64,000 nucleotides of DNA. Source: Candidatus Latescibacterota bacterium (GTDB lineage Bacteria; Latescibacterota; UBA2968). The position numbers and the translations under genes are program-made. The notes below the pieces were generated by a model. It had not been told where the DNA came from, did not search any database, and saw only the letters and a list, made by a program, of their open reading frames with translations. Location: positions 992,001 to 1,056,000 of the forward strand of contig OZ220741.1 in NCBI GenBank assembly GCA_965116885.1. The letters are read 5' to 3'. Below, piece after piece: positions 15,673-46,258 of the stretch (positions are counted from its first letter, which is position 1; every line of letters begins with the position of its first letter).

Positions 15673-15675
15673 AAG

Positions 15676-17498: not shown

Positions 17499-17499
17499 A

Positions 17500-22532: not shown

Positions 22533-24623
22533 CTACTTCAACAGCAGCATCTTCTGGATCGCGGTATTTGGACCCGCTTTGATCTTGGCGATATAAACGC
22601 CACTACCAACGCTGCGGCCCATAAAGTCCTTAGCATCCCACTGGACACTATAGCGACCCGCTGTATAATGCTGACTCACGAGTTGACGAATCTCCTGCCC
22701 AATCGCATCGTAAATGATGATTGATACATCTGCATCAGAAGGCAAATCGTAGGAAATCGTCGTCCTCGGGTTAAACGGATTGGGATAAACAGCCGACGCA
22801 AATTCTGTGGGCATAGTGAAACGCGCGCCCAACAGCACCTCAATCGGATTTGAACGGTTAATCGTCCCATCCAGATCAACCTGCTCGAGAACATAATAAA
22901 CGATCTCGGCAGCGGGAAGGCTGGTATCCTCAAACATATAATCCATCAACTGATCGGTCGTACCAGCACCAGCGATAAGCGCGCTAACCGCCTCGTAGTT
23001 CTCTCCATCCGTACTGCGAAGCACGCGGAAACCCGCATTATTGGTCTGCGAAGCCGTCGCCCAATTGAGCACCACGCGGTTTTCGACCACTGATCCGACA
23101 AACGACGACAACTCAATCGGCACCTGCTCGTCAAATTGAATGGTGACCTCAAGAGGTTCCATCATCCCATCCGCCGAGGCTGTCACCTTCACAACCGTAG
23201 AAACATAACCAGCGGCTGTCAAAGTCAGGACATTACCATCGACCGAATGTTCAAGCGTAGATTGTGGATCATCGCCCACACCATCTAACTGCTCCACAGT
23301 GAATGTAACCGCAGCCCCTTCGGGAAAGCGCACAGGCGTAACCGTAACCACCGCAGTGCCACCGCGCGGGATAGTAACGATGAGGCCAGGTGACACATCC
23401 AGATCCGGACCGTGGTTATACAACACCGGTGCGGGATTCATCAGCATCGACTCTTCGCCGGAAGCCAGAACGGCCCTAAACGACGAAACGCCAACTGAAA
23501 AAGGCACCACCTCGGCACCGGTCGTCAGCTTCAGCGTACCCAAAAAACCACCATTGGACAGCATCACGGCTTCTTCGGAACCGACATCGATCTGATTACC
23601 GGAAATACCCAGCAGCGTCAGACCCTCAGCAGGGTCAAAACCCGTAATCATCGCCGCAGAAGCCGGATCAACGACAAAAACAATACTCGCACCGCCGATA
23701 CCGCCAGCGACATCACCTGCAAACACCTCAATAGCGATATCTTCATTGGCACCAGCACTGCCCGAGAGCATGCCATCATCCATCATATTCATCATGTCCA
23801 TGCCCGCGATATCCAGCGCGGGAATGCGCTGCTCGACAAACTTGATGGTAACCGGACCGGCCGTAGCCATACCGTCACCTGCCGTCACCACCGCCGTTGC
23901 CGGGCCACTCGCCGTCAGCGTCAGTGTGGCACCGTCCTGCGCGGACGTAATATTATCCATCATTTCGCCCTGCACATCAAACGTAATCGTCGCATCGGCG
24001 GGGAAATTCACAGCCGTCAACGTCGTCGTACCCGTGCCACCCGGCGGCACTGGAACCGTCATAGACATATCCATCATATCCATCATAGACATGTCTGTTG
24101 TCTCCAACCTGGGAACAGCATTGAAAGACAAGGGCGCCATCATCGCCGTGGTAATATTATCCGTATCTGTAGGATTGGCAGCACCGGCCAGATTCATAAT
24201 ACTGACACCAACGGTAAATTCGGTACTCGCCATCAAACCCTCTACGGGCGACAGCGTAACAGTCCCGAAATAATCGTTGGTCAAAGTACCAGAAGGAACA
24301 GCACCAAAAGAAACCGTGCTCGCCGTTGTACCCAGAGCAAAAAATCCCGTAGCAGGAGCCGCGCTTGTAACCGTCAGCTTATCCGTATCAAAAGTCACCA
24401 CACCACCGACAATAGGACCTGCCAACCCGGAAATAAATATCTCAACGACAACATCGGTACCCGCAACTGCAGTACCCGATGTATTGCCATCATTCATTTT
24501 ATTGTCACTGGCATCAATATCAACGCCTACAACAGCGTTGGCATTGGGGCCCGCAGAAGCTTGCCCCACAAAAGCCAGCAACGCAAGAGCAGTAAAAAAT
24601 AACAAGCCTTTTTTCAAGAACAT
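22533..24623 (-). CDS. Secreted protein C: cohesin-like and Ig-like domains, PVEL-type domain, T9SS/FlgD-type CTD
   Basis: Signal peptide MFLKKGLLFF..QASA; VVVEIFISGL..GGVVTFDTDKL (cohesin-like); VPIELSSF..LNWATASQTNNAGF; YPNPFNPRT..SGVY..KMLLLK. Confidence 0.8.
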   Translation of the reverse strand: MFLKKGLLFFTALALLAFVGQASAGPNANAVVGVDIDASDNKMNDGNTSGTAVAGTDVVVEIFISGLAGPIVGGVVTFDTDKLTVTSAAPATGFFALGTTASTVSFGAVPSGTLTNDYFGTVTLSPVEGLMASTEFTVGVSIMNLAGAANPTDTDNITTAMMAPLSFNAVPRLETTDMSMMDMMDMSMTVPVPPGGTGTTTLTAVNFPADATITFDVQGEMMDNITSAQDGATLTLTASGPATAVVTAGDGMATAGPVTIKFVEQRIPALDIAGMDMMNMMDDGMLSGSAGANEDIAIEVFAGDVAGGIGGASIVFVVDPASAAMITGFDPAEGLTLLGISGNQIDVGSEEAVMLSNGGFLGTLKLTTGAEVVPFSVGVSSFRAVLASGEESMLMNPAPVLYNHGPDLDVSPGLIVTIPRGGTAVVTVTPVRFPEGAAVTFTVEQLDGVGDDPQSTLEHSVDGNVLTLTAAGYVSTVVKVTASADGMMEPLEVTIQFDEQVPIELSSFVGSVVENRVVLNWATASQTNNAGFRVLRSTDGENYEAVSALIAGAGTTDQLMDYMFEDTSLPAAEIVYYVLEQVDLDGTINRSNPIEVLLGARFTMPTEFASAVYPNPFNPRTTISYDLPSDADVSIIIYDAIGQEIRQLVSQHYTAGRYSVQWDAKDFMGRSVGSGVYIAKIKAGPNTAIQKMLLLK

Positions 24624-24714
24624 TTGCAAAACTCCTTCGCTGAAAACTACTCCATGTAAGTTCTGAGGGGAAATAGGTAGGGGGCGAAAGATTTTTCGCC
24701 CCTACCAAAACGAA

Positions 24715-27700
24715 TTACTTGAGCAGCATCAGCTTCCGCACATCCTGGAACTTCCCTGCCGAAATCTGGTAGAAATAAATCCCACTCGAAACCGGCACCC
24801 CGCGATCATCCATACCGTCCCAACGGACTTGATAGCGACCGACCAACTGCGGTTCAGAAACCATAAGCGTCCGAACCACCTGACCCACCACATTGTAAAT
24901 CTGGAGCGTCACGTCGGCAGACTCGGCCAATTCATAACCGATCGTTGTTTCGGGGTTAAACGGATTGGGGAAATTCTGGAGCAGTGCAAACTCTGTAGGC
25001 GTCGTCTGAATATCCAGCACACCGCCGGCCAATGGATTGGCGAGCTGACTCGGATCAAACACCAGGCCGTCGGCAATCTCAAACCGCGCATTATCTTCAA
25101 AATCGCGCAACACGCGGAACACCAACCGGACAACATCGCCATCGCCAGAAACCTCCGAGCCATTGACGATACTATTCATAACGTGAACCTGACCGGCCTC
25201 AGGCGATAAGCTCCTGAACAGCGGGGTCTCGCCACCTGTGGACTTCAGCAAATCCTCAGTAGCCGGCACCGCTTCTACATACTCGAACTTCTCAGCGTCG
25301 TAGTGCAGCACAAACCCATAACCCATCAGAGCCTGTACATTGGCCAGAGACACATCCACAAACATCGTCTCGCCAGCCACCACGCGATCACTGCCCAAAC
25401 GCAACAAGAACTCGGCATTCTCATTTACGCCAAGAACAGGCGTAACCAGAGACTTGCCAGCCGGACCTGTCGCTTCTTTGCCATAAGAGCCAAAGAACAG
25501 AATGAAGTCATCGAAATTGACCACCGTATCATCATTCAGGTCAGACTGAATAAAGACTCTCCATTCCTCGCGCGTCGAGGTGGCCTCACTCTTATTAAAC
25601 GCCATCGTAAAGGCCACAAAGTCTTCAAAGTCAACCAACAGCGGCGTCATAGCCCCGTACCTGCCGAGCTTCACGACAAAAACGGGATTGCCATCGGCAT
25701 CCACAAACAGCCTGCGCTTCGGTGCAAGCTCAACCACCAGAGGCGGTACAATCGACGTCATGTTGGTGCCGTCCATCACAACCACATCTATCAGCACCGC
25801 AGGCACGCCCTGATCAATCAGAGACTCGATCAAAACCTGGGGAACCGTTAAACCGGTCGAACCAGGAGGAAGAGCCCCGCCAACCAGTGCGGTGACATCA
25901 ATCGGCGGTGCTTCTGCACCGACGACACTCGCCATAACCTTGTAGCCCGTCACATGCGGAATCATAATCGCGTGACCGCGATACATCACAGCATCCATAC
26001 CGCCATCATCTGCGGACGCCGTCCAGGTAATAACCCCGGTATCCGGATCGGCAGCAACATCGGTCACAGCAGCAGGCGCTGTATCATCAATCGCAGCCGC
26101 CATACCTTCCGATGCCGTAATCGGAGACGAAACAATGGGACTAAGATGTCCACCCGTGCGGATATTCTGCGGAACAGCCACATTGCCACCGATCAAAACA
26201 CTCAAATCGGGATCCAGCGCCGCAAACACCACATTCTGCCTGCCGCCAGTAAGCGAATTAATATAATCAGCAGAAGGCATCAGCATCTCGACAAGCTCAT
26301 CCTCGGTGACAACCCGATTGGGATCCATACCCAGGAACTGAACCAACTGTTGCATGCTCTCCTTGGAGAACACGCGCTTGCCAGCAGGCGTAGGCTCATT
26401 CGAATCCATACCCTTCTCAGCAGCAACGCCCCAACGCGTCGCATTGGCATCCGTCACCGGAACAACCGCGCGCGTCATACCTTCTTCATCATCATTATCC
26501 ATCGCATCGATAACAGCCCAGGGAACCCACTTCGCCATTGGCGTATCGGTCGTCACCACATTGCCATCGGCATCCATCGCGGTATTCACCATCATCTCGC
26601 GATACACGCGATACTGACTCACATCAGCGTGATTCGCCGAATTGGCAAAACTCACCATCACATAGTGACCGTTATCCCCTTCCTGATCCTGCACAACCAC
26701 ACTCGCAGGTGCAGCGGGCAACACTTGCGTAAACGACACCTCAACCGCAGACGTCGTAACGCCAGCGCCAGAAGCCGTCACCGACACACTAACCGTGCCC
26801 GTAGCCTTCAGCGTCAGAACATTGCCGTCTGCCGACGCTGTAAGATAAGGATGGTCCGCCGGATCGACATTAAACGTAATCTCGGCACCTTCGGGGAAAC
26901 CCGTTGCAACGACCATTGCCATTGCAGTGCCAACCTCAGTCTGCGGAACCATAACCTCAGCCGCATCTGAACCAACAGTGGGCATCGCCCGGAACAGAAT
27001 ACTAATCGCCTCGGTCATCATCCCACCGGCAGAGGCCGTCACCGACACCATCGCAGACCCCTCACCGCTCGCCGTAATCGTCACCATATCACCATCGGTA
27101 TCGGAGGCAATCGAAGCGGTACCGGAAGTCTTGCTTATCGCATAAGTAACGACACCCTCCAGACCCACTGCCGTAACCGTCACCGACTTCATCCCACCCT
27201 CGGGAATAATCACATCCGTCGCATCCGCCTTCACATAAGGATCGGGATTCGAGAACGTAATCGTTATCGAAGCAGACGACATACCATCGGAAGCCATCAC
27301 CGTCACATCGCCGGGCGTCTCCGCCGTAAGCGTCAAAACGGCACCATCTTCCATAGCCTGAAAATCGGCAGTCGCTTCATAAGAAAACTTGATCACTGCA
27401 TCTTCGGGAAAATCGACAGCCGTCACCATCACGGTAGCCGGAACACCAAAATCATCAAACTCAACCTCGGTGCTCTCCGTCTCCAGCATGGGTACCGGAC
27501 CACCGCTGACCATCACAGCATCGCCAGCAGCAGCCATAGCCCGCATCCCTGCAGGCGTAAACACATTAACCGAAGCATTAATGGAAACCATCGCCCCATC
27601 GTAAGCAGGACTTAGGGTCAACGTCACAGTGCCAAAACTGCCATCTGTCAGCATCGTAGGCGCGCCAATAAGCGTAAGACTCATACCGACAATGCCGTCC

Positions 27701-28413
27701 GGAGACACATTCAGACCAGCAGCAGGCATACCACCAGTAATCGCCGCCACAGCGGGATCGACCATAATGGTAATCTCGCCACCAACGACTGGGCCTTCCA
27801 ACCCATCAACAGCGACATTGACAACAACTTCATCGCCAGCAGCAACAGGACCCTCGCCGACACGCATCAGGGAAACGGACAAATTGTCATAACCCGGCAT
27901 CATACCAGTGCCGCCATTATCACCACCACCGTTGCCATTACCCCCGGTACCACCTTCATTAAACGTAAGCGAAGCTGACAAGGGAAGTGATGTGCTCTGA
28001 CCAACACCCATATGAATGGTGACCCCTGTAATGCCAACGGAAAATTCCACATCCGTTACATCTGACAGGGGAGTAAAGGTAAACGTAGCTTCTGCCGGCA
28101 CCTGCAGCGGTGTTCCAGGAAGAGAAACTATGGAAACCGTAGAACCGGACACGAGAAGGCCCGGGGGCGCAGCAATACTTAAAAGAGAAGAATCAAATGA
28201 AAACTCGAGATCCAGGGCTTGCGCAGTGGCAAGCAGAGGATTATCGGCAACGCCCGTCGTGGAAACCTTAACCATAACGGCGTCCATTCCAGAAGCCTCG
28301 CCTGCGGTGCCATCCGTAACATGCGAAAGCGACACACTCTGTGCAGAAGCCTGTCCTGCAAACATCAGCAATGCCAACGCAGTCATAAACAAAAGACTTT
28401 TTTTCAAAAACAT
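24715..28413 (-). CDS. Secreted protein B: cohesin-like, Ig-like repeats, dockerin-like EF hands, cohesin, T9SS/FlgD-type CTD
   Basis: Signal peptide; VDFEDFVAF..DLNDDTVVNFDDFILF; VDVSLANVQALMGYGFVLHYDAEKFEY; QNFPNPFNP..KLMLLK. Confidence 0.82.
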   Translation of the reverse strand: MFLKKSLLFMTALALLMFAGQASAQSVSLSHVTDGTAGEASGMDAVMVKVSTTGVADNPLLATAQALDLEFSFDSSLLSIAAPPGLLVSGSTVSIVSLPGTPLQVPAEATFTFTPLSDVTDVEFSVGITGVTIHMGVGQSTSLPLSASLTFNEGGTGGNGNGGGDNGGTGMMPGYDNLSVSLMRVGEGPVAAGDEVVVNVAVDGLEGPVVGGEITIMVDPAVAAITGGMPAAGLNVSPDGIVGMSLTLIGAPTMLTDGSFGTVTLTLSPAYDGAMVSINASVNVFTPAGMRAMAAAGDAVMVSGGPVPMLETESTEVEFDDFGVPATVMVTAVDFPEDAVIKFSYEATADFQAMEDGAVLTLTAETPGDVTVMASDGMSSASITITFSNPDPYVKADATDVIIPEGGMKSVTVTAVGLEGVVTYAISKTSGTASIASDTDGDMVTITASGEGSAMVSVTASAGGMMTEAISILFRAMPTVGSDAAEVMVPQTEVGTAMAMVVATGFPEGAEITFNVDPADHPYLTASADGNVLTLKATGTVSVSVTASGAGVTTSAVEVSFTQVLPAAPASVVVQDQEGDNGHYVMVSFANSANHADVSQYRVYREMMVNTAMDADGNVVTTDTPMAKWVPWAVIDAMDNDDEEGMTRAVVPVTDANATRWGVAAEKGMDSNEPTPAGKRVFSKESMQQLVQFLGMDPNRVVTEDELVEMLMPSADYINSLTGGRQNVVFAALDPDLSVLIGGNVAVPQNIRTGGHLSPIVSSPITASEGMAAAIDDTAPAAVTDVAADPDTGVITWTASADDGGMDAVMYRGHAIMIPHVTGYKVMASVVGAEAPPIDVTALVGGALPPGSTGLTVPQVLIESLIDQGVPAVLIDVVVMDGTNMTSIVPPLVVELAPKRRLFVDADGNPVFVVKLGRYGAMTPLLVDFEDFVAFTMAFNKSEATSTREEWRVFIQSDLNDDTVVNFDDFILFFGSYGKEATGPAGKSLVTPVLGVNENAEFLLRLGSDRVVAGETMFVDVSLANVQALMGYGFVLHYDAEKFEYVEAVPATEDLLKSTGGETPLFRSLSPEAGQVHVMNSIVNGSEVSGDGDVVRLVFRVLRDFEDNARFEIADGLVFDPSQLANPLAGGVLDIQTTPTEFALLQNFPNPFNPETTIGYELAESADVTLQIYNVVGQVVRTLMVSEPQLVGRYQVRWDGMDDRGVPVSSGIYFYQISAGKFQDVRKLMLLK

Positions 28414-28486
28414 TACAAACTCCTCTATTGAAAATGGAATCGGGTAGGGGCGAAAAATCTTTCGCCCCTACTGATCCATCGGCGAA

Positions 28487-31400
28487 TTACTTGAGCAGCA
28501 TCAGCTTCCGCACATCGCTGAACTTCCCGTCTGCCGCAATCTGGTAGAAGTAAATCCCACTCGAAACCGGCACACCGCGATCATCCATCCCGTTCCAGCG
28601 AATCTGATAACGACCCGCATTCTGAGCCTCAGAGGCGACCAGCGTCCGAACCACCTGACCCAACACATTGTAAATCTGGAGGGTCACATCGGCGGACTCG
28701 GCCAAATCGTACTTAATGGTCGTATCCGGGTTAAATGGATTGGGGAAGTTCTGGTGCAAAGCGAACTCTCTGGGCGTGCTCTGGAGTTCCAACACACCCG
28801 CGACCACCGCCGGGTTCTGAAGCTGACTCGGGTCAAAGACCAGACCGTTGGCAATCTCAAACCGGGCGTTATCCTCAAACTCGCGCAACACGCGGAACAC
28901 AAACCGGACAACGTCACCATCGCCGGAAACCGCTGTACCGTGGATCACACCGTTGACAACTTCAACCTGACCGTCGGCAACCATGTGATGGAACAGCTTG
29001 CTTTCTCCACCTGTTGACGTGAGCAAATCTTCATCGGCAGGCGCCACACTCACAAACTCGAACTTATCCGTCTCGTAATTGAGCGTGAATCCATAGCCCA
29101 TCAAAGCAGCGACATTGGCAAGCGACACATCCACAGCCATCAACTCGCCAGCAACCACGCGCTCACTACCCAGACTCAGCGAAAACTCAGCATTCTCGTT
29201 GATACCGGGAAGCAGTACGAGAGGCTTGGTAGCCGGACCAACAGCTTCTCTGCCCCAGGAAGCGATGAAAATGAGATAGTCGTCAATATTGACCATACCA
29301 TCATCGTTGACATCTGCCTGGACATTGTAATTCGCATCGCCTTCGCTGCTACCCCACGCAGCTAAGAGAGCCAGATAGTCATTCGTGTTAACGACCATAT
29401 CTGCGTCAGAGATCAGATACACGGGATCGCCATTTGAATCGACATAACTTCTGCGACCTGCCAGCTCTTCATAGACAACATCGAGACTTGCAGAATACTG
29501 ACCACTCGTAGCCGTCACCGACGCAGTACCTGACCCGCTCAGTGGAACTGTCAACGGAGCATAGCCATCGGCATCTGCCGTCACATCAACCGAACCAAGC
29601 GCAGAGGTAAAGGTAACCGTATCGCCCTCATTCAAACCCTCAGCGCGAACCGTTACATTTACCGAGCCGCCAGCAGGAATCATCACAGTATTACCCGCCT
29701 GATCCCCATCCTGACCGGGAACCCAGAGCGTAAGGGAAAGATCCAGAGGCGCGCGAACAGCGAACATCGCAGTAGATTTGATGTTCTGGCTTCGCGTATC
29801 ATCAGCGTCTAAGGACGTATTATCCACCCTGACCTGGATCGACACCTGTTTGGCATTGGAAGGCGCTGTAACAGGGAAAGTCTCACCCGCCACCTCTATC
29901 GTCCATTCAAACGGAGGCAGGCTTATATCGGGCAAGGAACGCAGCGTAATATCAAATCCGTTTTTATAATTGAACCCGTTTGTGACACCGTCCACTTTAA
30001 CGTTCACCCGGGTATCCAGGATATTCAACGAGTCTGAAGCTCCAGCAGCAGCTTTTGCAGGCGCAGCCCTGTAAGCCTTCACAGAGGGGTTGCCATGCCG
30101 GTCAACCGGGATCACCCGAAGGGCGAAATCACCCCAAACCTCCGATGCTGGACCATCGACGCCATCTTCCCAGGCGGTTATCTCAAACTTGTTGAAGTCT
30201 GCCGCATCGACGGTAAGATCCTCTATCGCACCACTAAAGGCTGCAACTGACGTACCGCCCATACCAGCATTCCGGTGCTCAACCATAATTTTGAGACCGT
30301 CCATCGTCTTATTCGACTTGGCGAAAACCGTGCGCTCGCCGAGTTTCCAGTCACCGGCAGCGAGCGTGGCAGAACCATCACCATTATCGGTCACCCCACC
30401 ACCGTGGAACATCACGGATGAAGCAGCACCGTCTGCATCCCAGGCACTGATACGCACTTCTTCTGCCAGCATATTATTTTCATCCCTGTTCTTATACGTC
30501 AATGCTGGACGGTCATCATCATCGTTATCAGGCGTACCATTATTATCCCACGCCTTCAGCCGCAGATGAAACGCCTGACCAGCAACCACGGAGTCGCTTG
30601 CAGCATCTTCTGCCATATCAGTGGGATCAAAATTTCTGATCGTGAACATATTCGCCTTCGGATTGTCGAATTGCGCGTCAAACACAAAATCTGCGGATGC
30701 TGCCGAAGGCGTCTCGAAAGCATTCCCCGCAAGATCGCGCGCAAAAATCGTCAGCGTATAGGTCTTCGTCGCATCAAAAGCCTCACTGACCAAAATCTGA
30801 TGTTCGCCCTTGGCCAGATTACCCATCTCCTCAACAATATCGCTACCACTGGAAGGATCATACGTCACCGAAAGAGAATCCACGGCTTCCTTCAGCGTAA
30901 CGACCGGGTGACGCGTGGCATCGTTAATCTTATTGTCATCATCTTCGAGAAGATCATTTCTCGGGAACCAATCAGAAATCGTCGGCGGCTTCTGATCGTG
31001 AACGACATTATCAATGACCACCTTGGTTTTGTTACCCACCTGATCTGTCGCCACAACCACGAGATTGATCTTCGTACCACCCTGACCCGTTGCTGTCAAC
31101 TTATTGTTGGACGCTTTTCTAAACTTGAGACCCACCGTGTTGTAGATGATCGTATCGCCAACAGACGTTGCACCGTGTCTCGCGACAATCTCACTGAGAT
31201 CCAGATTCCGATCATCATCCGGCGTCCACAGAACGATTGCAGCATCGCTAATCTCATCTACGTCATTGGCATTTTCGGCGCCGTCGGCATAGACATACAG
31301 CGAGTCAACATCTTCATCCAACCTGATGCGCAGCGGATTGAGGAATTCATCCCAGTTCGTATCGGCGTGATCACCTGTGATACGATCACCAGCAGCGGGA

Positions 31401-33334: not shown

Positions 33335-33835
33335 CCTTCGACCTCCTAAAAAAAAGTCAGGATCGAGTAAATGATTGTTTACGAACGTTTTAATTCTACT
33401 GCGAAACTGCATCCCCTCGCGCTGTTCATCGCGCTGTTTAAGACCGGACCCCAGAACAGGGTGAGAGCCGCGACCTTTGCGACTTAGCGGAGAAGCACTA
33501 CCGTATTCCAAATTTATATCCCTCCCTTCAACAGACTTGTTTTCATATATCTTAATTCCTTTCAATACAACAAGTTACGAACAACTATGAATTAACCATT
33601 TTATTCAAGTACCTCCTTCCAAAAACAGCCTAACACACACCAATGCAACATCCTTACAATAGCGTTCAGGAGTAATGCGTTAGGAGAAATCAACACCCCT
33701 TCTGTTTTGTTTGATGTTTGGTTCATGGGAACTGCTCCACATTAATATATGACGGGCTAATTATATGCAATCAAAAACATAGTGTCAAGCGTTTTTTCTT
33801 CGGTAATGATATGATAATAAAAAAGAAAGGCAAAG

Positions 33836-34170
33836 GCAATCAGAATCAGGATTTACAGGATTAAAGGATGGGCAGGATAAAGGCAAAAGCAAAGGCAAAG
33901 GCGAAAGGCATCCGCAGATGACGCAGATAACGCAGATGAAAAGGCAAATACAATCAGAATCAGGATAAAAGCAAAACCAACGGCAACACCTCTGGATCGC
34001 GGGTAACACCACCCCGCGATGACGGGAACCTGTCCCATAGAGGCCTTGTTCCTATGTAATATAATATAAGGAATATAAGGGAAGAACAAAAGCAAATAGG
34101 ATCAGGATGGGCAGGATAAGAGGATGGACAGGATGAAAGGCAAAGGCAAAAGGCAGAGGCAAAAGATAAA
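33836..34170. repeat. Dense low-complexity repeat patch (AGGAT, AAAGGC, CGCAGAT units and CTGGATCGCGG hairpin)
   Basis: Multiple caggat/aaaggc units; ccgcagatgacgcagataacgcagatg; cctctggatcgcgggtaacaccaccccgcgatgac. Confidence 0.8.
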
Positions 34171-34172
34171 AA

Positions 34173-35798
34173 TCAAAAGTCTATGAAGCGGATACCAAGA
34201 TCAGACGGGGGTTTTGGCGCATTGGGATTGACGCGCGCCATGATCTGTTGATCCAAAATGTCAGTGATGATCGGATTGTACGCCTCCCATTGACGGATCG
34301 GCGCATCATTCTCGTCGCGGCGCCAGATCTGGATATCGCCGAATTGCTTCTCCACTGTATAGCCGAGAATGGGATTGGCGAGACTGGTAGCCGCCGACAC
34401 AATATGGCTGACCGAGGTTGAAATCACCGCCGTATTATTTATCGCACGCCCTGTAAACGCATCGTAAAACGGTATCTCCCGGTGCAAATAATAATAGCCG
34501 GGGAGATTATAATAGCGTCTATCAACCTGCCACACACCCTGAACACCGGGCGTGCGGGCGAGGTAGCGATACGCGGCAAAAATCGGATCCTGATCGCGGA
34601 TGAAGGCGAATTTACCTATCTCTTTGGAAAAAGCGCGATACACCTGAGCCTGAGAAGGCAGTGCGTTTAGAATACCGCATAGTGAAATTGCCGCGAACAA
34701 AACCCCCACCAATCCCCAAACGCGCACATGCCCACCAAATCGCGCCACCACATCTGCACCAACCAAAAGCCACAGCGGAACAACCGCAAAAACGAACCGA
34801 TACTCCTTGTGCGCCTGCACAGAATGCATGAGCAACACCAGAGCGACCATCGCCAAAACAAACCCGTAACGCCGCACATCGCGCAGTGCGACAACCATAC
34901 ACAGCGCACCCAACCCGACACTCGCGAGCAAAAGCCACCATAAAAACTGGTATCCCGGGGTCTCGCCAGTACGGTCATGTGCGAGATTGAAACGGATATT
35001 CGTAATATAGGAATGAAACAAACCGCCATCCCACGTCATCGCATCGAACACACCCACCGCCAGCAGAAACACACCCGCTGCCAGCGCGAGATGAACCTTC
35101 TTCTCCGTCCTGAAAAAAAACACACCCAACAGCAACAACGCGATTGGCGCGTACTGCACGCGTATCGCCGCCACCAGCACCGCCACCAGCGCCATCAGCC
35201 ACACCGTCCTTCTCCTATCCACCGACGACCGCACACACAGCACCAGCAACGCCATCAACAGAGCCGTCGCCACAAACTCCGTCATCGGCTTGTGGGCAAA
35301 CCCCGCCAACTCATACCAGAACGCACCTGCTACCAGCGCCACCCGCGCCGATAGCTCCCCAAAATGCCGCCGCGCAAAAAAATACATCCCCACTGGAATC
35401 AGCAGAGAAATTGCACAAAATATCAGCTTGACGCCGCCCACATACCAGAACGGCTCACCGAGTCCCATTAGATCAAACACCTTCAACACCCCGGCAACCA
35501 GACCGGGCACCAGCCATGAACGCGCCCCGTAAAAAAACTCCCAATACGTAACCCCATTCCCAAAAACCAGGCGATGCGCCGGCTCCAAATACTGCATCAC
35601 TTCATCAGGATGCAAAACAAAATCGCCACCCAGCGCAATCGCCGCGCGCACAGCGAACGCCAGCGCGAGCACCGGCAACAAAAACTTCCACGGACGCTCA
35701 TCGGACGCCTGCAAATGCAACAAAGCACCTACCACAGAGACAGGCGACCTCTGCCCTCTCTCCCGGCGCGTCCTCCTTGTCTTCCTTCTCTTCGCCAT
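34173..35798 (-). CDS. GT22 (PIG-B/Alg9-like) membrane mannosyltransferase
   Basis: PDEVMQYLEPAHRLVFG.G..YWEF..GARSW and AHKEYRF match PIG-B family motifs; multi-TM. Confidence 0.85.
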   Translation of the reverse strand: MAKRRKTRRTRRERGQRSPVSVVGALLHLQASDERPWKFLLPVLALAFAVRAAIALGGDFVLHPDEVMQYLEPAHRLVFGNGVTYWEFFYGARSWLVPGLVAGVLKVFDLMGLGEPFWYVGGVKLIFCAISLLIPVGMYFFARRHFGELSARVALVAGAFWYELAGFAHKPMTEFVATALLMALLVLCVRSSVDRRRTVWLMALVAVLVAAIRVQYAPIALLLLGVFFFRTEKKVHLALAAGVFLLAVGVFDAMTWDGGLFHSYITNIRFNLAHDRTGETPGYQFLWWLLLASVGLGALCMVVALRDVRRYGFVLAMVALVLLMHSVQAHKEYRFVFAVVPLWLLVGADVVARFGGHVRVWGLVGVLFAAISLCGILNALPSQAQVYRAFSKEIGKFAFIRDQDPIFAAYRYLARTPGVQGVWQVDRRYYNLPGYYYLHREIPFYDAFTGRAINNTAVISTSVSHIVSAATSLANPILGYTVEKQFGDIQIWRRDENDAPIRQWEAYNPIITDILDQQIMARVNPNAPKPPSDLGIRFIDF

Positions 35799-35858
35799 TC
35801 CTGCCCTACTCTCCAATAAACGTTCAATGCGGTAAACACGTATGCTATTTGCCAACAG

Positions 35859-37691
35859 CTATTCTTTTCGGCGCAAGATATGTACACCCCACTCCCTGGG
35901 CAAGGGTGTAAAAGCGTGCATATTCAACTCGGGCCGCTGTGTCGGATAACGATGAACATCCGGTTCCGCGGCTACGACATAGTGCGCCTTGACCAGTTCC
36001 CAGTAATCTTCCTTTAATGTGCCAAAAACCACGATCCAGTCAGGGAGATACTCTCCAACCCAGATGTAGGGCGCATCCAGAGCCTCGATTCTGGCACGCG
36101 GCAAAGGCGAATCCTCGTCGAGCACGTAACAGAACAACACATGGTGACCCGTCGTAAAGATCAGTGCCTCCCGGTCGGCAAAACCCGACACGTACACCAG
36201 ATCGTCCTGCTCGGCATGAGTCAGCAAATAGTCGGAAACCACCCGAATGGAATCGCGGTATGGCCGATGCACTTCACGGACAAACTCAAAAAAGTGAAAA
36301 CCAAGCGTGCGCTCGCCAGTAAACAGCATGGTCATGTTAAACGGATAAGCCCCGGCACTGGTGAACAGCAGAATGCCAAGTGCAACCACACCGGCGATAA
36401 CGTGCCGACGCCATACCCATTCCACAAACAGCCCCTTCATCGCCAACAGCAACGGCAAAGCCCCTACGTAATAACGCAAATCGGCAAACGGGTGCGCCCA
36501 TACTGCCTGGCTCGACAGTGCTGCCGAAAACAACGCGAACAATGTACCCATCAAGATGATCTTTCCCGCAGCCACCAGCGGCAAGTCGTTTCCGAGGATC
36601 TTTTCAGTAATACCTGCACCAGTGTCTGTTCGCTGTCGCCTTGCCTGTCGCGATACCCTGGCCGCCCGCTTCCGTCGGACCTGATAGGCGAGCACTATCA
36701 TACCTGTAAACCACAAAAATACCGGCCATGAAATCCAATCAGCAGTGAACAAATCCCGGATATATATCCAGATTCTCAACAGCAACAAAGGCATTGCACC
36801 TCGATATTCCCCCAGGTTCGTAACGCCCGTGAAAGCGAGAAACCCGCTGCGCTCACCGCCGATAACGCCCAGCCAATAGAGGTACCCGGCTCCCACCGCA
36901 ACTACAGCCACACCGCAGATAGCGAACAACACCCACTCTCGCAGTGCAGTCATACGAGCGCGAAAAAGCAAATGATACGTCCCCAGCGAAAGCATTGTCG
37001 CCGCCCCACCAGCGTAGTGGTTAAAAAACGACAATGCCGCCACCGCCGCAATAGCAGGCAGGTACGCCAGACGTCGGCTCTGCCAGTAACACTCGTACAA
37101 ATAAAAAATAAGTATCAGCGCGAGCACCATCACCGAAAAGTAGCGAGACTGGCGGAAATACAACAACAACTGCGCCGACCAGGCAGCGAATAAAAAAATA
37201 AAGAACATCAACCGCGGGTAGTTCGACAGGTACTGGCGCAACAGCAGATAGAACACGCCGAGAGCGACGACACCTATGACAGCATGTACAATGCGCGCGC
37301 CTATCTCGTTAATGCCGAACACCGCGAACCCGGCAGCATTCAGCACATACATCAGCGGCGGCCAGGGATCGCGCAGATCATCATTGAGCGAGCGTCCATT
37401 CGTGCCGCAGACCAGATTGCGCCCATCCCAACCGAGAATATCGCCCTGCTGCAGCAAATTTTTGCCTATAAAGGCGGGAGGCGCCTCGTCGTGCCACAGC
37501 GCGGCGTAATCCAGATTGACCAGGCACAAGTACGCCGCGACCAGCAGCACGCCTATGGACGCCGCAGTATATGGCGCGGCGCGCAAACGGTCTGATAGTG
37601 ATACAAGTCTTGTCAATATATTCTCCTCATCCACCTGAATACCAGACGGACCGCATCGTAGCGCAGTTGTTCCATTCAACCTACCGCTCAT
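35859..37691 (-). CDS. GT-C glycosyltransferase (PMT_2/ArnT-like)
   Basis: LWHDEA after TM1, PPLMY, G.NEIGAR, QSRYFS; ATGA overlap with upstream gene. Confidence 0.8.
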   Translation of the reverse strand: MSGRLNGTTALRCGPSGIQVDEENILTRLVSLSDRLRAAPYTAASIGVLLVAAYLCLVNLDYAALWHDEAPPAFIGKNLLQQGDILGWDGRNLVCGTNGRSLNDDLRDPWPPLMYVLNAAGFAVFGINEIGARIVHAVIGVVALGVFYLLLRQYLSNYPRLMFFIFLFAAWSAQLLLYFRQSRYFSVMVLALILIFYLYECYWQSRRLAYLPAIAAVAALSFFNHYAGGAATMLSLGTYHLLFRARMTALREWVLFAICGVAVVAVGAGYLYWLGVIGGERSGFLAFTGVTNLGEYRGAMPLLLLRIWIYIRDLFTADWISWPVFLWFTGMIVLAYQVRRKRAARVSRQARRQRTDTGAGITEKILGNDLPLVAAGKIILMGTLFALFSAALSSQAVWAHPFADLRYYVGALPLLLAMKGLFVEWVWRRHVIAGVVALGILLFTSAGAYPFNMTMLFTGERTLGFHFFEFVREVHRPYRDSIRVVSDYLLTHAEQDDLVYVSGFADREALIFTTGHHVLFCYVLDEDSPLPRARIEALDAPYIWVGEYLPDWIVVFGTLKEDYWELVKAHYVVAAEPDVHRYPTQRPELNMHAFTPLPREWGVHILRRKE

Positions 37692-39580
37692 TCCCGCCAC
37701 ATAATCTCGGTAATAGCGAGACCGCCGCCGTTGAGATCGTCCTTACTCTGGTGCGGATTGGCAACGCGAAAGCGCACGCGCACATCGCCGGACAACTCCG
37801 ACAGCGGAGCGCATACATTCTTACTCGTCTTATTGTCCAGATCAAACGACTGCGGTGACACATCAGCGTAAGAGATAGCGACTTTCAGCGGATCCTCTGG
37901 CGGATGGAACGGCGCCAGGACAGAGAAGCACAGTGTTGCATCGCTATTTGCATCTACCAGCACACTTGAGCTTTGCCCGATACTCAGCGGACCGAGGTTG
38001 GTACCGACCCAACCCGCCTTGAACGCAGCAGAATCTTCCCCATCCTCAGACAGCTTCTGCAGTTCAAAAGGCGTATCGTCCAACGCGGCAATAGTATTTT
38101 TGCCCACAATATAAATATTTGCCTGTGGATAGTAATAAACGAATCGGTCATCCACGTACTGAAAGTATCGCTGAAACCCCGCCGAAAAGGTGATCACACG
38201 CTCAGCAGCATCAAAGTATTGGAACTTAGAATATTCGTGAGACAGGACATTGTGCGGCCGTACATCCGTCAGAACCAGTGACGCCACCGCCTCGTCCATA
38301 ATAAACTCGCCCATCGTGTTATCGACAATAAGCCCGTGGGTTATATCGGTAGCGTGGTCAACCGGCGCAATGTTATCCATATACGAAAAACTGAACCCAT
38401 CGCGTATGACATTCTCGCGGACATGGACATTACCCGTCAGCGTGGCAGTCAGAGAAACGCACAGAACCAACTGCAGCAGGGCGGACATCAGAATATGGCG
38501 TCGGTCCGAGTGTTTCCGCGCAACATCCGGCTGCGTCATCTCCCGCAGTAAGGCGGACACCAGAGGCCAGAACATCACCACCATCACCGGTGCCATCGTA
38601 TAGGGATAAAAGGTACCAGCCAGCGGGTCCTTCGCCATCAAGTGCCACAACACCCACGGCAGAACGGCAACAACTGCGACCAGAGGCAGCAGGCTCCGTT
38701 GCACAACAGCGAGCAGAGCCAGTGCCAACATCGGAATGTACACGTACTCGCGGTCGGACGCGATAAAAGCCAACCGTTCCAAAATTAGATCCACAGTCAG
38801 GTGCGCGTAAGGCGGCGAGCCGACAAACTTCCACACAATCGTGTCGTCGCTCGGAGAAAAGGATTGCCGCACCAGAAACGCCACAACGCTGTACCCAATA
38901 CAAATGAGAGACACCAGCCCGAAAAACCGCCAGATATCCCGTCGTTCCCGCACGCACCACCAGAAGTACGCGGCCAGCAGAATGAACAGACCGAACCCGT
39001 GCAACCCCGCGTCCTCCCGGACACTGAGCAGCCCGGCCAATGGCAAAAAGGGCAACCACCACAAACGCCGATATTCACGCAGACGTATCCAAACCGCGAT
39101 AAACAAGGCGATAAACGCGGGCATCGCCATCTCCACATGGGGAAAACTCGTCGATGTGAACACGAACGGATTAAGCCCTGTAGCGACAGATACAACCGCG
39201 AGCAACCAGCAATTCATCGCCCTGTAGCCAATCAAAAAAACCGCCAGACTGACCATCCCTGCCCAGGCACCCTGCACAATTGAAAAATAGACCTGCTCGG
39301 ACAAAAAAGATGAAAATATCTGGTAAATCCATGAAAGAGGAAAAAAGAAAAGAAACACATGACGCCCCAGCATCGGAACATCTTCTATACTGGGAATACC
39401 CGTGACCTTCGGCGTCAGAGCATGGGTTGCCAGATAGGCAAACCAGCCAGCATCGTAAAGCGGGGCACCGTGAACGTAAAAGAGGTGAAGCAATGAATTG
39501 GCAATGACCACCTGCGGCAAAACAAAACACACCGCCGCGAGCAAAGCAGTTCGATAGCCGAATCGATTAGTCAAGCACAC
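37688..39580 (-). CDS. GT-C-like multi-TM protein (DUF2079-like) with C-terminal extracytoplasmic domain
   Basis: YDAGWF, FPHVE, VREDAG motifs; many TM segments; in operon with other GT-C genes. Confidence 0.6.
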   Translation of the reverse strand: MCLTNRFGYRTALLAAVCFVLPQVVIANSLLHLFYVHGAPLYDAGWFAYLATHALTPKVTGIPSIEDVPMLGRHVFLFFFPLSWIYQIFSSFLSEQVYFSIVQGAWAGMVSLAVFLIGYRAMNCWLLAVVSVATGLNPFVFTSTSFPHVEMAMPAFIALFIAVWIRLREYRRLWWLPFLPLAGLLSVREDAGLHGFGLFILLAAYFWWCVRERRDIWRFFGLVSLICIGYSVVAFLVRQSFSPSDDTIVWKFVGSPPYAHLTVDLILERLAFIASDREYVYIPMLALALLAVVQRSLLPLVAVVAVLPWVLWHLMAKDPLAGTFYPYTMAPVMVVMFWPLVSALLREMTQPDVARKHSDRRHILMSALLQLVLCVSLTATLTGNVHVRENVIRDGFSFSYMDNIAPVDHATDITHGLIVDNTMGEFIMDEAVASLVLTDVRPHNVLSHEYSKFQYFDAAERVITFSAGFQRYFQYVDDRFVYYYPQANIYIVGKNTIAALDDTPFELQKLSEDGEDSAAFKAGWVGTNLGPLSIGQSSSVLVDANSDATLCFSVLAPFHPPEDPLKVAISYADVSPQSFDLDNKTSKNVCAPLSELSGDVRVRFRVANPHQSKDDLNGGGLAITEIMWRE

Positions 39581-39592
39581 ACCCCACCTCCA

Positions 39593-40822
39593 TCAGGCAA
39601 TCCAGAGGTTCAAGCTAAACTTGTGCAACAAATACAACTGCAAAGCAAACATCGCAGCACAAACCGCATAAATAAGCCATGACCGTTTGACATTTCTCGC
39701 CAGCGCCAACGCGAGGAACGGAATCGCAACCAAAAAGAAACGGGGAAAAGACACACCAATCCCCATTGCCGTCTGGCAATATATAAGCGGCAGATAAAAG
39801 CACAGCAAGCCCCACTCCTTATACAAAACAAAAATCAGAGCACACAGCATAGCAGCGACAACAAAAATCTTGTTAAACAAACTCTCTCTCGCACCAAACC
39901 AACTCGTGCTCTCACTGGAAAGATACGCAACAAAATGCCCCGGATTGATCAGATTGGATATGCTATTGACACCAAAGGTATCTTGCCCGGACACACCTGC
40001 CAGAGGATCTCCCGTAGTAAAACCAAAAAACGCCAAATACAACATTCCCCCAACCAAAAAAGCATAAAAACAACTCAAATAGTAATTCCAGTTGAAAGCA
40101 ACCGAATCCGCTATCGCACTTACATAAGCATCTTCTTTTCGCGCCCTTCGCCGCCTTTGACTCCGCGTCTCCGTTTTTCTCTTTCCCGATCTAAAATGCT
40201 CTACGAGCACATAAGCAAACAGACCAACAGCAAAAAACAATGCTGTTCCCCTCGTCAACGGCAACAATGCCGCATAGACCCACCTCTTTCTACTTTTCGT
40301 AACCAGAAGATGATAAACAAGTCCCAATTGCAGAAACAGAAACAACGCCTCTGTATAAAAAACCGAAATAAAAAAGGCAGTGGGAAATGCCAGCACAATC
40401 AGAACAGCCAGATAAGGCTTCTCACAGCCAAAATGTTCGCCCAGCTTGAACAAAAAATAACAAAATCCCGCAGTCAACAAATAACTCAGCAAAGCCGCCG
40501 CTACCATTCGCGGAACAACATAGCTCAGAATGTGAATTAACACGGGATACAATGGAAAAAAAGCGCGAGGACTATCTGGCGTCTCCTCGTAATTGTACCC
40601 CCAATCAGACAACAGCAAATAATACTGCCCATCCCAGTTGGCAAATGGAATATACCACGATGACACATCGTCCTGTCCGGTGTACCAGCGATTCCACAAA
40701 TTCGGTACATTGTCAAAATCTGAATAGGCATAAAAAGAAATCAATATTGCCGACACAATCAGCGTTTTGACGACCAATGCCATACCAACTGCATATTTTT
40801 CTTTCAGGGTGAATCTCAGCAT
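39593..40822 (-). CDS. GT76 (PIG-V/Gpi18-like) membrane mannosyltransferase
   Basis: WDGQYY..GY..AFFPLYP, AFF..FYTEALF, TRG..; multi-TM. Confidence 0.85.
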   Translation of the reverse strand: MLRFTLKEKYAVGMALVVKTLIVSAILISFYAYSDFDNVPNLWNRWYTGQDDVSSWYIPFANWDGQYYLLLSDWGYNYEETPDSPRAFFPLYPVLIHILSYVVPRMVAAALLSYLLTAGFCYFLFKLGEHFGCEKPYLAVLIVLAFPTAFFISVFYTEALFLFLQLGLVYHLLVTKSRKRWVYAALLPLTRGTALFFAVGLFAYVLVEHFRSGKRKTETRSQRRRRARKEDAYVSAIADSVAFNWNYYLSCFYAFLVGGMLYLAFFGFTTGDPLAGVSGQDTFGVNSISNLINPGHFVAYLSSESTSWFGARESLFNKIFVVAAMLCALIFVLYKEWGLLCFYLPLIYCQTAMGIGVSFPRFFLVAIPFLALALARNVKRSWLIYAVCAAMFALQLYLLHKFSLNLWIA

Positions 40823-41058
40823 TGCAACCTTTCTTTTTTGCAATAAAAAACAAACGCCTCACGGGTCGGCAAAAGACCTGGGAGGCACTTGAAGAAAGAT
40901 AGAACCTTCTGGATCGCGCGGGACGGCACGGGGGCCGTCCCCTACAACGGCAGGCCACGATGACACCTTAGAGGCAAAGGCGAACCTCTGGATCGCGGAT
41001 GACGCCACCCCGCGATGACGGTGATGGATTATTGGCGTCATGCGTCAGAACAACCGCG

Positions 41059-41379
41059 TCATGCATCCAACGCTTGCTCAAATGCGTCAAGATTGGACAC
41101 CTGGATCGCTGCACGATGCAACTGCTTGAGACGTTGCAGATCGTCAATCGCGGCAAGGCGAGCAGATAGGGGGTGCGCTTCGCTCAGGTCAAATCGAATC
41201 TCCAACACGTCGAGGATATCTTCGATGGCACGTTGCCTGACCCCCTGCTCAATGCCTTGCTCAATGCCTTGCTCAATGCCTTGCTCAATACCTTGCTCAA
41301 TGCCTCGTTCAATACCTTCCTCAATACCTAATTGCTTGATGTATTGTGCAAACGACGATTCGCGCATAATGGCATCCAT
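41059..41379 (-). CDS. Putative intragenic small protein (RpnS-like, 106 aa)
   Basis: In-frame ATG at 41379 preceded 5 nt upstream by AGGAGG (41385-41390). Confidence 0.65.
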   Translation of the reverse strand: MDAIMRESSFAQYIKQLGIEEGIERGIEQGIEQGIEQGIEQGIEQGVRQRAIEDILDVLEIRFDLSEAHPLSARLAAIDDLQRLKQLHRAAIQVSNLDAFEQALDA

Positions 41380-42012
41380 AAGACCCTCCTGTAAGAGAAT
41401 GCGATTGATCAGTGTCTGATCATACGCTAACCCACTCAATATCATCATCCTGCCCAAAATGTCAACCTTTATTGATTCATCCACCCGCAGTGCATTCGTC
41501 GCGTCAACACAGTGGCGAAACCACGCATCCGAGTCCATCCTATCAGGACGTTTCATCAAGGTGGTAAACGGAAACAAGCCCGAAGGTCCGCCATCAAGAA
41601 TCTCCTGTCCCTCTATCTCACTCAGCCGAATCACTGTGTATTCTATCAGAACGCGACGACCGAGAAAATCCTGGACATAATACCCCGGATCGCGACGACC
41701 TGCATTGCGCCGCAAGTAGATCACACTGGAGTAAATCGGCAGGTCGTGCTGCTCTATCGCACGGATCATATAGCCCGCCATGCGAAGCGGCATAGAGGGA
41801 TCGTCAGTGGTTTGAAACTCCGTATGGATCAACGCCTCCTTGCCTGCGATAAGGACGCGAATGAGGCTATCGGCGTATCGTGTATCAACCGTGCTTTGCT
41901 CTGTGTCGAGGATGTCCAGGACTTCTACATCGTCCTGTTCAAGTGTGAGGCGGATGAAGTCTTTGGGATAGGTCTGGATCAGATCTTTGGAGACGGTGTC
42001 ATATTTGGCCAT
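41059..42012 (-). CDS. Rpn-family PD-(D/E)XK nuclease/putative transposase, copy 1
   Basis: YDTVSK.L, RYADSL..HTEFQT..MPLRM; (GIEQ)n linker; C-terminal helical domain. Confidence 0.88.
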   Translation of the reverse strand: MAKYDTVSKDLIQTYPKDFIRLTLEQDDVEVLDILDTEQSTVDTRYADSLIRVLIAGKEALIHTEFQTTDDPSMPLRMAGYMIRAIEQHDLPIYSSVIYLRRNAGRRDPGYYVQDFLGRRVLIEYTVIRLSEIEGQEILDGGPSGLFPFTTLMKRPDRMDSDAWFRHCVDATNALRVDESIKVDILGRMMILSGLAYDQTLINRILLQEGLMDAIMRESSFAQYIKQLGIEEGIERGIEQGIEQGIEQGIEQGIEQGVRQRAIEDILDVLEIRFDLSEAHPLSARLAAIDDLQRLKQLHRAAIQVSNLDAFEQALDA

Positions 42013-46027: not shown

Positions 46028-46258
46028 GCGAGAAATCCTTTTGGTAAAGCAACCACAGATGAACACAGATAAACACGGATAAAAGGCTAAAACAATATAG
46101 AAGGATACAGAGGCAAAAAGCAAGCGGAATCAGGATGTGCAAGATGAAAGGATGGACAGGATAAAGGCAAAAGCAACCCCCTCTTGACAGCCTGTGCGTC
46201 GCATTGTATCATTTTATAATCAAGAATTCACACACCCCATAACCTCAGGAGAATCGCT

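Follow-up and report, generated by a model that had tools for sequence, protein, structure and literature searches.

Four genes for predicted GT-C glycosyltransferases lie head to tail upstream of three genes for large secreted proteins in a 64,000-nt stretch (the window) of the genome of a Candidatus Latescibacterota bacterium, a single 5.56-Mb contig that is 98% complete (OZ220741.1; the window is positions 992001-1056000). The presence of these four genes varies among close relatives, and the secreted proteins, which end in the C-terminal domain (CTD) of type IX secretion system (T9SS) cargo, are encoded behind a conserved promoter of their own. We favor, at a probability of roughly 0.55, a model in which the four genes are a horizontally exchanged GT-C cassette for glycan decoration in the periplasm, located at a recombination hot spot beside an independent operon for T9SS-exported scaffolds.

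A GT-C gene block next to a T9SS surface-protein operon

The four GT-C open reading frames (ORFs) occupy the minus strand at 39593-40843, 37688-39580, 35859-37700 and 34173-35855; the first and second frames lie 12 nt apart, the second and third overlap by 13 nt and the third and fourth lie 3 nt apart, and the proteins have 7-10 membrane segments each by a crude hydropathy count. The stop codon of the last gene, which encodes a GT22 family protein, is followed after 838 nt by the ATG of CTD1, the first of three large surface-protein genes on the same strand. An earlier note on this DNA had described four linked, co-oriented GT-C genes upstream of three large secreted proteins, with a repeat-filled gap of about 840 bp between the blocks. 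ORFs and spacing confirm this layout, and the gap contains short pyrimidine-rich direct repeats. Block, operon and the elements around them are as follows.

39593-40822, minus strand: PIG-V-like (GT76-like) GT-C protein, 409 aa; likely ATG at 40822, as in P0128 (open frame to 40843, 416 aa)
37688-39580, minus strand: DUF2079-like membrane protein with a probable GT-C fold and a C-terminal beta-sandwich domain, 630 aa; assigned from relatives, the ESM Atlas and a model
35859-37700, minus strand: PMT_2-like GT-C protein, 613 aa; PF13231 borderline
34173-35798, minus strand: GT22 (ALG9/PIG-B-like) GT-C protein of the mannosyltransferase family, 541 aa; PF03901; start as in P0008 (open frame to 35855, 560 aa)
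33760-33788, minus strand: sigma-70-type promoter of the surface-protein operon, TTGACA-17-TATAAT
33335-33759, minus strand: conserved leader of ~420 nt before CTD1, from a seven-genome alignment
28487-33334, minus strand: CTD1, signal peptide, variable region of ~1300 aa, dockerin-like module, cohesin and T9SS CTD; 1615 aa from MNFHK (open frame to 33565)
24715-28413, minus strand: CTD2, signal peptide, repeated beta modules, degenerate dockerin, cohesin and T9SS CTD; 1232 aa
22533-24623, minus strand: CTD3, signal peptide, duplicated N-terminal module, Met-rich runs and T9SS CTD; 696 aa
40987-41016, minus strand: 30-nt hairpin element, upstream copy, ATCGCGGGGTGG-N6-CCGCGATCCAGA
33991-34020, minus strand: 30-nt hairpin element, downstream copy, same motif within one substitution per half

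The cassette varies among relatives and the surface genes persist

Two conserved genes bracket the locus, and a regulator gene lies in the variable interval between them.

45407-46123, minus strand: bifunctional-nuclease/UVR-domain gene, conserved flank (family scan and relatives)
43770-45170, minus strand: sigma-54-dependent response regulator, within the variable interval (family scan)
21221-22231, minus strand: GFO/IDH/MocA oxidoreductase, conserved flank (family scan and relatives)

We retrieved the interval between the nuclease and the oxidoreductase genes from relatives and mapped it by blastp and Pfam, with relatives' genes taken as stop-to-stop frames picked by length and blast matches. 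The sample comprises 20 congeners, which are not independent of each other, four other genera of the family and 16 genomes of a sister family. No GT-C gene is present at the locus in G001, G002, G006 and G011, where the nuclease gene is followed by one small ORF, the promoter and the CTD genes (two rather than three in G001). G017 carries GT22 and one protein with 10 transmembrane segments and no family, and G014 carries GT22 alone. The loci of G020, G004 and G015 hold glycan clusters of 15-20 kb in which GT22 and one or two PMT_2-like genes are combined with a PgfS/ArnC-like GT2 gene, epimerases/dehydratases for nucleoside diphosphate sugars and a split transketolase. Methyltransferases are added in G020 and G004, a DegT aminotransferase in G004 and G015, a sulfotransferase and a kinase in G020, and a nucleotidyltransferase in G015. 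The GT2 proteins of these islands reach 188-190 bits with NF047588, the PgfS model, which is their best score. A DUF2079-like gene is full length at the locus in G015 and a remnant in G004; decayed cassette copies are found in G009, G019 and G004. The response regulator recurs at the locus in G020 and G004 and is missing from it in G017, G014 and G015. None of the 47 island ORFs scanned belongs to a Wzy, Wzx or initiating phosphoglycosyltransferase family.

GT22 occurs in 15/20 congeners, 0/4 other genera of the family and 1/16 sister-family genomes (16/40 relatives). The PIG-V-like gene is restricted to two congeners, one copy having an internal stop and the other being a remnant (2/40), and the DUF2079-like gene to four (4/40), whereas CTD3-like matches were obtained in all 41 genomes of the order that were searched. 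GT22 does co-occur with the surface genes, the synteny that the earlier note had proposed to check: it lies <30 kb from the CTD3 ortholog in nine of the 20 congeners (G004, G005, G009, G013, G014, G015, G017, G019 and G020, two of them decayed) and in one genome of another family (G030). It lies >300 kb away in G008, G010, G016 and G018 and on another contig in G003 and G007. The site is favored by the cassette, not fixed, and the surface genes are independent of the cassette. An obligate link between the two blocks is not supported, given the surface genes that stand without GT genes in four relatives, the ubiquity of CTD3-like proteins in the order and the operon's own conserved promoter.

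One relative has a second GT-C array away from the surface trio (L048-L049, G010:C1:1394001-1434000). Four paralogous polytopic proteins of 410-426 aa, 77-85% mutually identical and without a Pfam family, alternate there with three PMT_2-like genes and GT22, and a 1551-aa NHL/FG-GAP protein follows.

The surface operon has its own promoter and leader

The promoter at 33788-33760 matches the consensus at 12/12 positions, and both hexamers are identical in 7/7 aligned genomes of the genus. The CTD1 leader has a mean column identity of 81% in these seven genomes, although the CTD1 protein is just about 45-55% identical among them, and conservation of promoter and leader persists whatever the upstream content. 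The sequence immediately ahead of the GT-C block yielded no convincing promoter. The best reading is that the surface operon is a transcription unit probably separate from the GT-C cassette.

The leader contains lineage-specific hairpin insertions, and all seven genomes keep a hairpin that covers the AGGAGG ribosome-binding site of CTD1. RNAalifold predicts 100 pairs in the leader, three with compensatory changes, from sequences too similar to reveal structure. An Rfam scan of gap and leader returned no family, only one chance-level snoRNA row (E 0.75). A possible upstream ORF of 35 codons lies inside the leader. The pyrimidine-rich repeats of the gap were considered as a genome-wide element and rejected, with just 0-8 exact copies per motif.

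Identity of the four GT-C proteins

The family labels decrease in firmness from GT22 through PIG-V-like and PMT_2-like to DUF2079-like. The GT22 protein scores 115.7 bits with PF03901 (cut-off 23.8, E 4e-33) over model positions 4-358 of 414, and its gene is the only PF03901 match in the whole genome. Its first loop contains HPDE (residues 82-85 of the 560-aa frame), a putative catalytic motif of GT22. Searched against solved structures, the GT22 sequence gave no match at E<=0.01.

Neither the PIG-V-like nor the DUF2079-like protein itself matches a Pfam family at E<=10 or an NCBIfam model. For the PIG-V-like protein, 68 of 120 homologs among the matches listed bear PF04188, and some are named 'mannosyltransferase family protein'; the nearest ESM Atlas clusters are PF04188, and 20/30 feature hits fall within the PF04188 set. 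D71 in the first loop is invariant across 32 aligned sequences and belongs to a WD..Y motif that we likewise presume to be catalytic. An AlphaFold2 model (pLDDT 87.3, pTM 0.90) was matched with VIA-align to Pmt4 (Z 21.0; 321 aligned residues, root-mean-square deviation 4.3), STT3 (Z 20.4) and ArnT (Z 20.2). The top 47 entries have the GT-C fold, including two GPI-transamidase entries (GPI, glycosylphosphatidylinositol), and the next fold class reaches Z 4.6. Foldseek returned nothing at E<=0.001 for this model, so that the GT-C matches emerged from VIA-align, and no PIG-V structure is among the fold matches.

The PMT_2-like protein straddles the PF13231 cut-off of 26.1 bits, with 23.5 bits by hmmscan and 27.8 bits in a six-frame search of the genome; its match to TIGR03663 (Agl23) has an E of 6e-9 and stays far under the cut-off.

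The DUF2079-like protein has 465 relatives at E<=1e-3. When 40 remote relatives were scanned, nine matched PF09852 at E<=1e-3, including four that exceed the 28.2-bit cut-off; no family was assigned to 30, and the remaining one gave just a weak Voltage_CLC match. PF09852 clusters are also nearest in the ESM Atlas (score 0.97). D43, H148, E150, R188, E189 and D190 do not vary across 47 sequences, and the clusters formed by D43, H148/E150 and R188-E189-D190 would be compatible with an active site. In the fold search with the model (pLDDT 82.5), ranks 1-42 are GT-C-fold entries, two GPI-transamidase entries included, with Z from 14.5 to 8.6; STT3 (Z 14.5) and ArnT (Z 13.6) match best. A GT-C fold is predicted for this protein with moderate confidence, as Z near 14 can be reached by chance for helical models.

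Each of the four proteins is without a paralog in the genome (phmmer, E<=1e-3). The family labels of the earlier note thus stand by hidden Markov model (HMM) for GT22, through relatives and folds for the PIG-V-like and DUF2079-like proteins, and at the borderline for PMT_2; the direct PF04188 and PF09852 matches for which it proposed a search were not obtained.

The GT22 and PIG-V-like pair recurs in other groups

An alignment of PIG-V-like proteins, used to scan species-representative genomes, yielded 50 loci, of which we inspected the best 18. The closest matches outside the genus, at 62-67% identity, come from metagenome-assembled genomes (MAGs) titled Spirochaetia; other loci are in MAGs titled Nitrospirales, Gammaproteobacteria, Poriferihabitaceae, Arenicellales and Binatia. 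Seven of the 18 also contain a GT22 homolog (L074, L075, L076, L081, L084, L086 and L088), adjacent to the PIG-V-like gene in six; their titles are Spirochaetia, Nitrospirales, Gammaproteobacteria, Binatia and Poriferihabitaceae. Neighbors of the PIG-V-like genes include PMT_2-TPR fusions, TMEM260-like proteins and two directly adjoining GT2+GtrA/DPMS fusions (L083 and L085). The adjoining DPMS-type synthases support a polyprenyl-phosphate-hexose as the probable donor. No T9SS domain was found in the 54 neighbor ORFs scanned.

Bacterial pairs of the families that provide the second and third GPI mannoses thus recur across several named groups, often beside fusions of polyprenyl-phosphate-sugar synthases. 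We found no description of a bacterial GT22 and PIG-V-like pair in the literature, and none of DUF2079. In L080, from a MAG titled Arenicellales, two PIG-V-like genes are followed by five PMT_2-like matches in tandem and in overlapping frames, an unusually dense array.

Marks of a mobile cassette

The 30-nt hairpin element (<=1 substitution per half) has exactly two copies in 5.56 Mb, and these flank the four-gene block in the same orientation, which is suggestive of an insertion. A looser 13-nt core has 20 copies in the genome, seven of them in the window (6883, 19341, 22551, 33989, 40906, 40985 and 52885), and resembles repetitive extragenic palindromic (REP) families. Two paralogous genes with weak but consistent similarity to nucleases of a putatively recombination-promoting type adjoin the block on its upstream side.

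41059-42012, minus strand: Rpn/YhgA-like (PD-(D/E)XK) putative recombination-promoting nuclease paralog, sub-cut-off matches
42575-43456, minus strand: second Rpn/YhgA-like paralog, sub-cut-off matches

Their matches remain below the cut-offs in two libraries (TIGR01784, 29.1 bits with a cut-off of 52.1; PF04754, E 0.034). The family has nine copies in the genome, and copies are scattered within the variable locus of relatives.

Predicted T9SS-exported cohesin proteins and candidate dockerin partners

CTD1, CTD2 and CTD3 have Sec-type signal peptides and match TIGR04183, the T9SS type A sorting domain, with 38.0, 35.2 and 39.2 bits (cut-off 23), each match ending <=10 residues from the C-terminus. 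CTD1 (32.7 bits) and CTD2 (48 bits) also contain the only two matches to Cohesin PF00963 in the genome (cut-off 24.1), which agrees with the cohesin-dockerin and CTD architecture in the earlier note. The dockerin-like module of CTD1 is under both cut-offs (NF041540, 26.3 versus 29; PF00404, 19.9 versus 22.9). The C-terminal 310 aa of CTD1 and CTD2, which comprise dockerin-like module, cohesin and sorting domain, are 66% identical. The N-terminal modules of CTD2 and CTD3 were considered as extra cohesins and rejected, their similarity being merely marginal (i-E 0.004-0.01 in a three-sequence database).

PF00404 dockerins give 54 matches in the genome at E<=0.01, 33 over the cut-off and 53 outside the surface trio, mostly near the N-terminus or in the last ~60 residues and in a few cases internal. 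We scanned 40 of the 54 ORFs for domains. Nine are leucine-rich repeat (LRR) proteins, two contain WD40 and several have fn3, cadherin or Ig-like repeats; further carriers are GH10, GH113, a sulfatase, a chondroitinase-B-like protein, three proteins with a pectate-lyase fold, peptidases and a redoxin. Only about 12-13 proteins in the genome have a T9SS sorting domain. The two machinery components that were searched, a PorU-like C25 peptidase with its own CTD and SprA (634 bits summed), are both present.

Because of the cohesin and dockerin counts, the placement of the dockerins and the families that carry them, we read CTD1 and CTD2 as probable T9SS-anchored scaffolds for docking of dockerin-tagged proteins at the cell surface, not as a self-contained surface layer (S-layer). 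The perfect consensus promoter and the long conserved leader are only indirect signs of an S-layer or of high expression. Two cohesins, both on T9SS cargo, against more than 50 dockerin matches point to a non-cellulosomal docking system, which may display host-interaction proteins. A predicted complex of the CTD2 cohesin (995-1135) with the C-terminal dockerin of another protein of the genome (L126) scored 0.10, mark 0.34, which counts neither way. The papers found on dockerins and cohesins in sponge symbionts contain nothing on this system in title or abstract, and those found on type IX secretion in Gemmatimonadota are unrelated.

The trio had been called rich in Thr, Ser, Ala and Asp. Compared with long ORFs of the genome, this is correct for Thr (8.4-10.1% versus 5.4%), Ala (10.9-12.1 versus 8.4) and Asp (6.8-9.8 versus 5.8), but Ser is barely above background (6.2-7.5 versus 5.7). 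Val and Gly are also enriched, and Cys is absent. There is no long Ser/Thr-rich linker in the trio (at most 12 S+T per 30 residues), and the D(S/T)(A/I/L/V/M/T) sequon, a Bacteroidota motif that may not apply in the host phylum, occurs 8, 2 and 0 times versus 10.7, 6.9 and 3.8 in shuffled sequences. CTD3 has Met-rich runs (MSMMDMMDMSM and MDMMNMM, at about residues 178-188 and 275-281), as does CTD2; Met makes up 4.7% of CTD2/CTD3 versus 2.2% of background, and the runs may resemble Cu(I)-binding Met motifs.

Donor genes and a GT-C gene linked to PorU

Two PgfS/ArnC-like GT2 genes are located 29-33 kb past the end of the window, amid PMT_2-TPR genes, and the genome has one GtrA-like gene. The earlier note suggested looking for GtrB/Dpm1 and T9SS/PorU genes elsewhere; PgfS/ArnC-like, GtrA-like, PorU-like and SprA genes are present in the genome. 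Genes for a cytoplasmic glycosyltransferase, a flippase or sugar-nucleotide enzymes are missing from the block, so that the cassette must draw on donors made elsewhere.

A 512-aa PMT_2-type GT-C gene, preceded by a cluster of GT1, GT4, polysaccharide-deacetylase and epimerase genes, is found directly upstream of the PorU-like gene (C1:4891382-4898609; L064 7382-14609). This GT-C is present in 34/40 relatives, and the PorU N-terminus is adjacent in 28 of the 30 loci retrieved (L165-L194), which come from two families. If any GT-C serves T9SS anchoring in this order, this conserved one is a better candidate than the variable cassette; it offers a concrete candidate for the glycan side of cargo anchoring outside Bacteroidota.

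A model for the cassette and its alternatives

In the favored model, GT2 enzymes of the PgfS/ArnC type, encoded elsewhere, would load hexoses onto polyprenyl phosphate, the lipid-linked sugars would be flipped to the periplasmic face, and there the four GT-C enzymes would transfer them one after another to a presumed envelope glycoconjugate, yielding a glycan decoration of the surface that differs between strains, as in the Gtr, Arn and Pgf systems. Independently, CTD1 and CTD2, once exported by T9SS, would tether dockerin-tagged proteins to the surface. Decoration is preferred to polymer synthesis because no Wzy, Wzx or initiating transferase was seen in the 47 island ORFs scanned and because GT-C families are paired with GT2 and sugar-modifying enzymes in the islands of relatives. 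A periplasmic step that depends on polyprenyl-phosphate sugars is the natural reading of the block, in partial agreement with the earlier note, but obligate modification or anchoring of the surface proteins is not supported. That note had also allowed for coincidental linkage, which comes close to the mark; a recombination hot spot describes it better. That the cluster stands beside surface proteins is probably due less to a fixed pathway than to a variable insertion site.

Several observations weigh against this model. The cassette or its relatives stand beside the trio in 9/13 judgeable congeners, in the window genome and in G030, and chance adjacency is unlikely because the genome has so few T9SS CTD proteins. 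A hot spot would explain the adjacency, but it is something we infer rather than demonstrate, and the hypervariability of both the island and CTD1 would also fit co-diversification. The two hairpin copies need not mark an insertion event, since the element is part of a wider REP-like family. In loci of other phyla (L076 and L085), large Ig-like or Calx-beta proteins are encoded near GT-C arrays. Two of the family labels are drawn from relatives and predicted structures, for proteins that have no HMM match of their own, and the block lacks a donor-synthesis gene.

The same adjacency can be turned into a different hypothesis, which we consider possible but not likely: the cassette O-glycosylates the neighboring T9SS scaffolds, or the proteins docked to them, in the periplasm before export, giving facultative, strain-specific coats, with different islands at the site writing different glycans on the same scaffold. 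Glycan islands immediately upstream of the trio in nine congeners, the window genome and G030, against a background of 12-13 CTD proteins, would fit, as would the enrichment of the trio in Thr, Ala and Asp. The PMT_2-TPR and TMEM260-like companions of the GT22 and PIG-V-like pair are named protein O-mannosyltransferases in Pfam. The best score of the GT2 proteins in relatives' islands is to PgfS, and the Pgf system is described as modifying Cnm and WapA (PMC5856776, bioRxiv 10.1101/2022.10.10.511621); glycosylation of T9SS cargo is documented for Bacteroidota (PMC11611037). However, conservation of the trio extends to genomes that lack the cassette, its promoter is conserved and its own, Ser/Thr-rich disordered linkers are missing, the Bacteroidota sequon is not enriched, though it need not apply here, and at seven loci of other groups the pair stands without T9SS cargo in the neighbors that were scanned.

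A bolder version, which we hold to be doubtful, is that the cell is a symbiont with a glycan-coded, swappable surface, in which CTD1 and CTD2 are the sole scaffolds for ~50 dockerin proteins and interchangeable GT-C cassettes, gathered at the hot spot upstream of their promoter and including a GT22 and GT76-like pair exchanged between phyla, write strain-specific mannose-type glycans on scaffold or passengers. Many displayed passengers would then be eukaryote-like repeat proteins (LRR, WD40, cadherin/fn3) and others glycan-degrading enzymes.

It is quite improbable that the cassette was recently acquired and is now decaying or silent, with no current role. Remnants or interrupted copies in G004, G007, G009, G019 and G008 and the lack of a convincing promoter directly upstream of the block would be in line with decay, but none of the four frames in the window is broken, their spacing is tight, the encoded proteins retain the acidic residues that are invariant in their families, and full-length copies at 92% identity exist on other contigs.

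The earlier note's own idea of a GPI-analogous anchor, in which GT22 and the PIG-V-like protein build a mannosylated glycolipid that PorU attaches to cargo after CTD removal, is very improbable: the pairing recalls the second and third GPI mannosylation steps, PorU-like and SprA genes are present, and Porphyromonas T9SS cargo is reported to be anchored to a glycolipid (PMC11611037), yet such an anchor is expected wherever cargo and PorU occur, and the PIG-V-like (2/20), DUF2079-like (4/20) and GT22 (15/20) genes do not track the cargo (CTD3-like, 41/41) and are almost never found in other genera. PorU is coupled to a different, conserved GT-C (28/30 loci), and the block, the only part of the genome examined for these functions, lacks GT50, ethanolamine-phosphate transferase, transamidase and lipid-synthesis genes.

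Comparison with known systems

In the Gtr and Arn systems, a GT2 polyprenyl-phosphate-sugar synthase, a flippase and a GT-C transferase decorate O-antigen or lipid A in the periplasm. The block shares with them GT-C enzymes predicted to act on the periplasmic face and a strain-variable, mobile gene content, and the islands of relatives are Arn-like in having ArnC/PgfS-like GT2, DegT aminotransferase and epimerase genes. It differs in consisting of four different GT-C genes with no GT2, flippase or sugar-nucleotide gene, and its GT22, GT76-like and DUF2079-like families are unlike those of GtrC or ArnT. PIG-V (GT76) and PIG-B (GT22) are the eukaryotic enzymes that add the second and third GPI mannoses. 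The likeness to them lies in the same GT-C families, by HMM or via relatives, and possibly in the WD...Y motif with invariant D71 and the HPDE motif, which lie in the first loops. In contrast to the GPI pathway, the block has no GPI-MT-I, ethanolamine-phosphate transferase or transamidase, and its presence does not track cargo.

The Pgf system of Streptococcus mutans (PgfS, PgfM1, PgfE and PgfM2), in which a GT2 and polytopic membrane proteins modify surface adhesins (PMC5856776, bioRxiv 10.1101/2022.10.10.511621), is described from the core genome of a Gram-positive organism, whereas the cassette is accessory and its host a diderm with T9SS. TfsA and TfsB of Tannerella forsythia resemble the trio as large surface proteins with a T9SS CTD that are encoded side by side; they are O-glycosylated T9SS cargo, for which periplasmic glycosylation before export is documented (PMC11611037). 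Their glycosylation belongs to a general, phylum-wide pathway rather than to an adjacent GT-C cassette. For Candidatus Stygibacter (Cloacimonadota), a scaffoldin-like cohesin protein with a CTD was inferred from a MAG that also encodes enzymes with dockerins (PMC8542988). Cohesin modules and a CTD for surface attachment are common to both, but here each protein has one Pfam-recognized cohesin beside its own dockerin-like module, and among the 40 dockerin proteins scanned, about one in three is not an enzyme but a repeat protein of the LRR, WD40 or cadherin/fn3 type.

Other genes near the locus

The GFO/IDH/MocA oxidoreductase at the flank belongs to a very large paralog family, with 74-91 matches per genome in G001, G002, G006, G011 and G012. 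Between the surface locus and a proteasome operon lie UPF0175 and DUF3368 (PIN-like) genes (20432-21180, minus strand), a pair of the toxin-antitoxin type; DUF3368 fragments are found again within the islands of relatives. The Pup-proteasome operon (12599-19146, minus strand) is complete, outside Actinobacteria, and encodes two members of the Pup-ligase family, two proteasome subunits and an AAA ATPase resembling Mpa; it is kept beside the surface locus in relatives, the sister family included.

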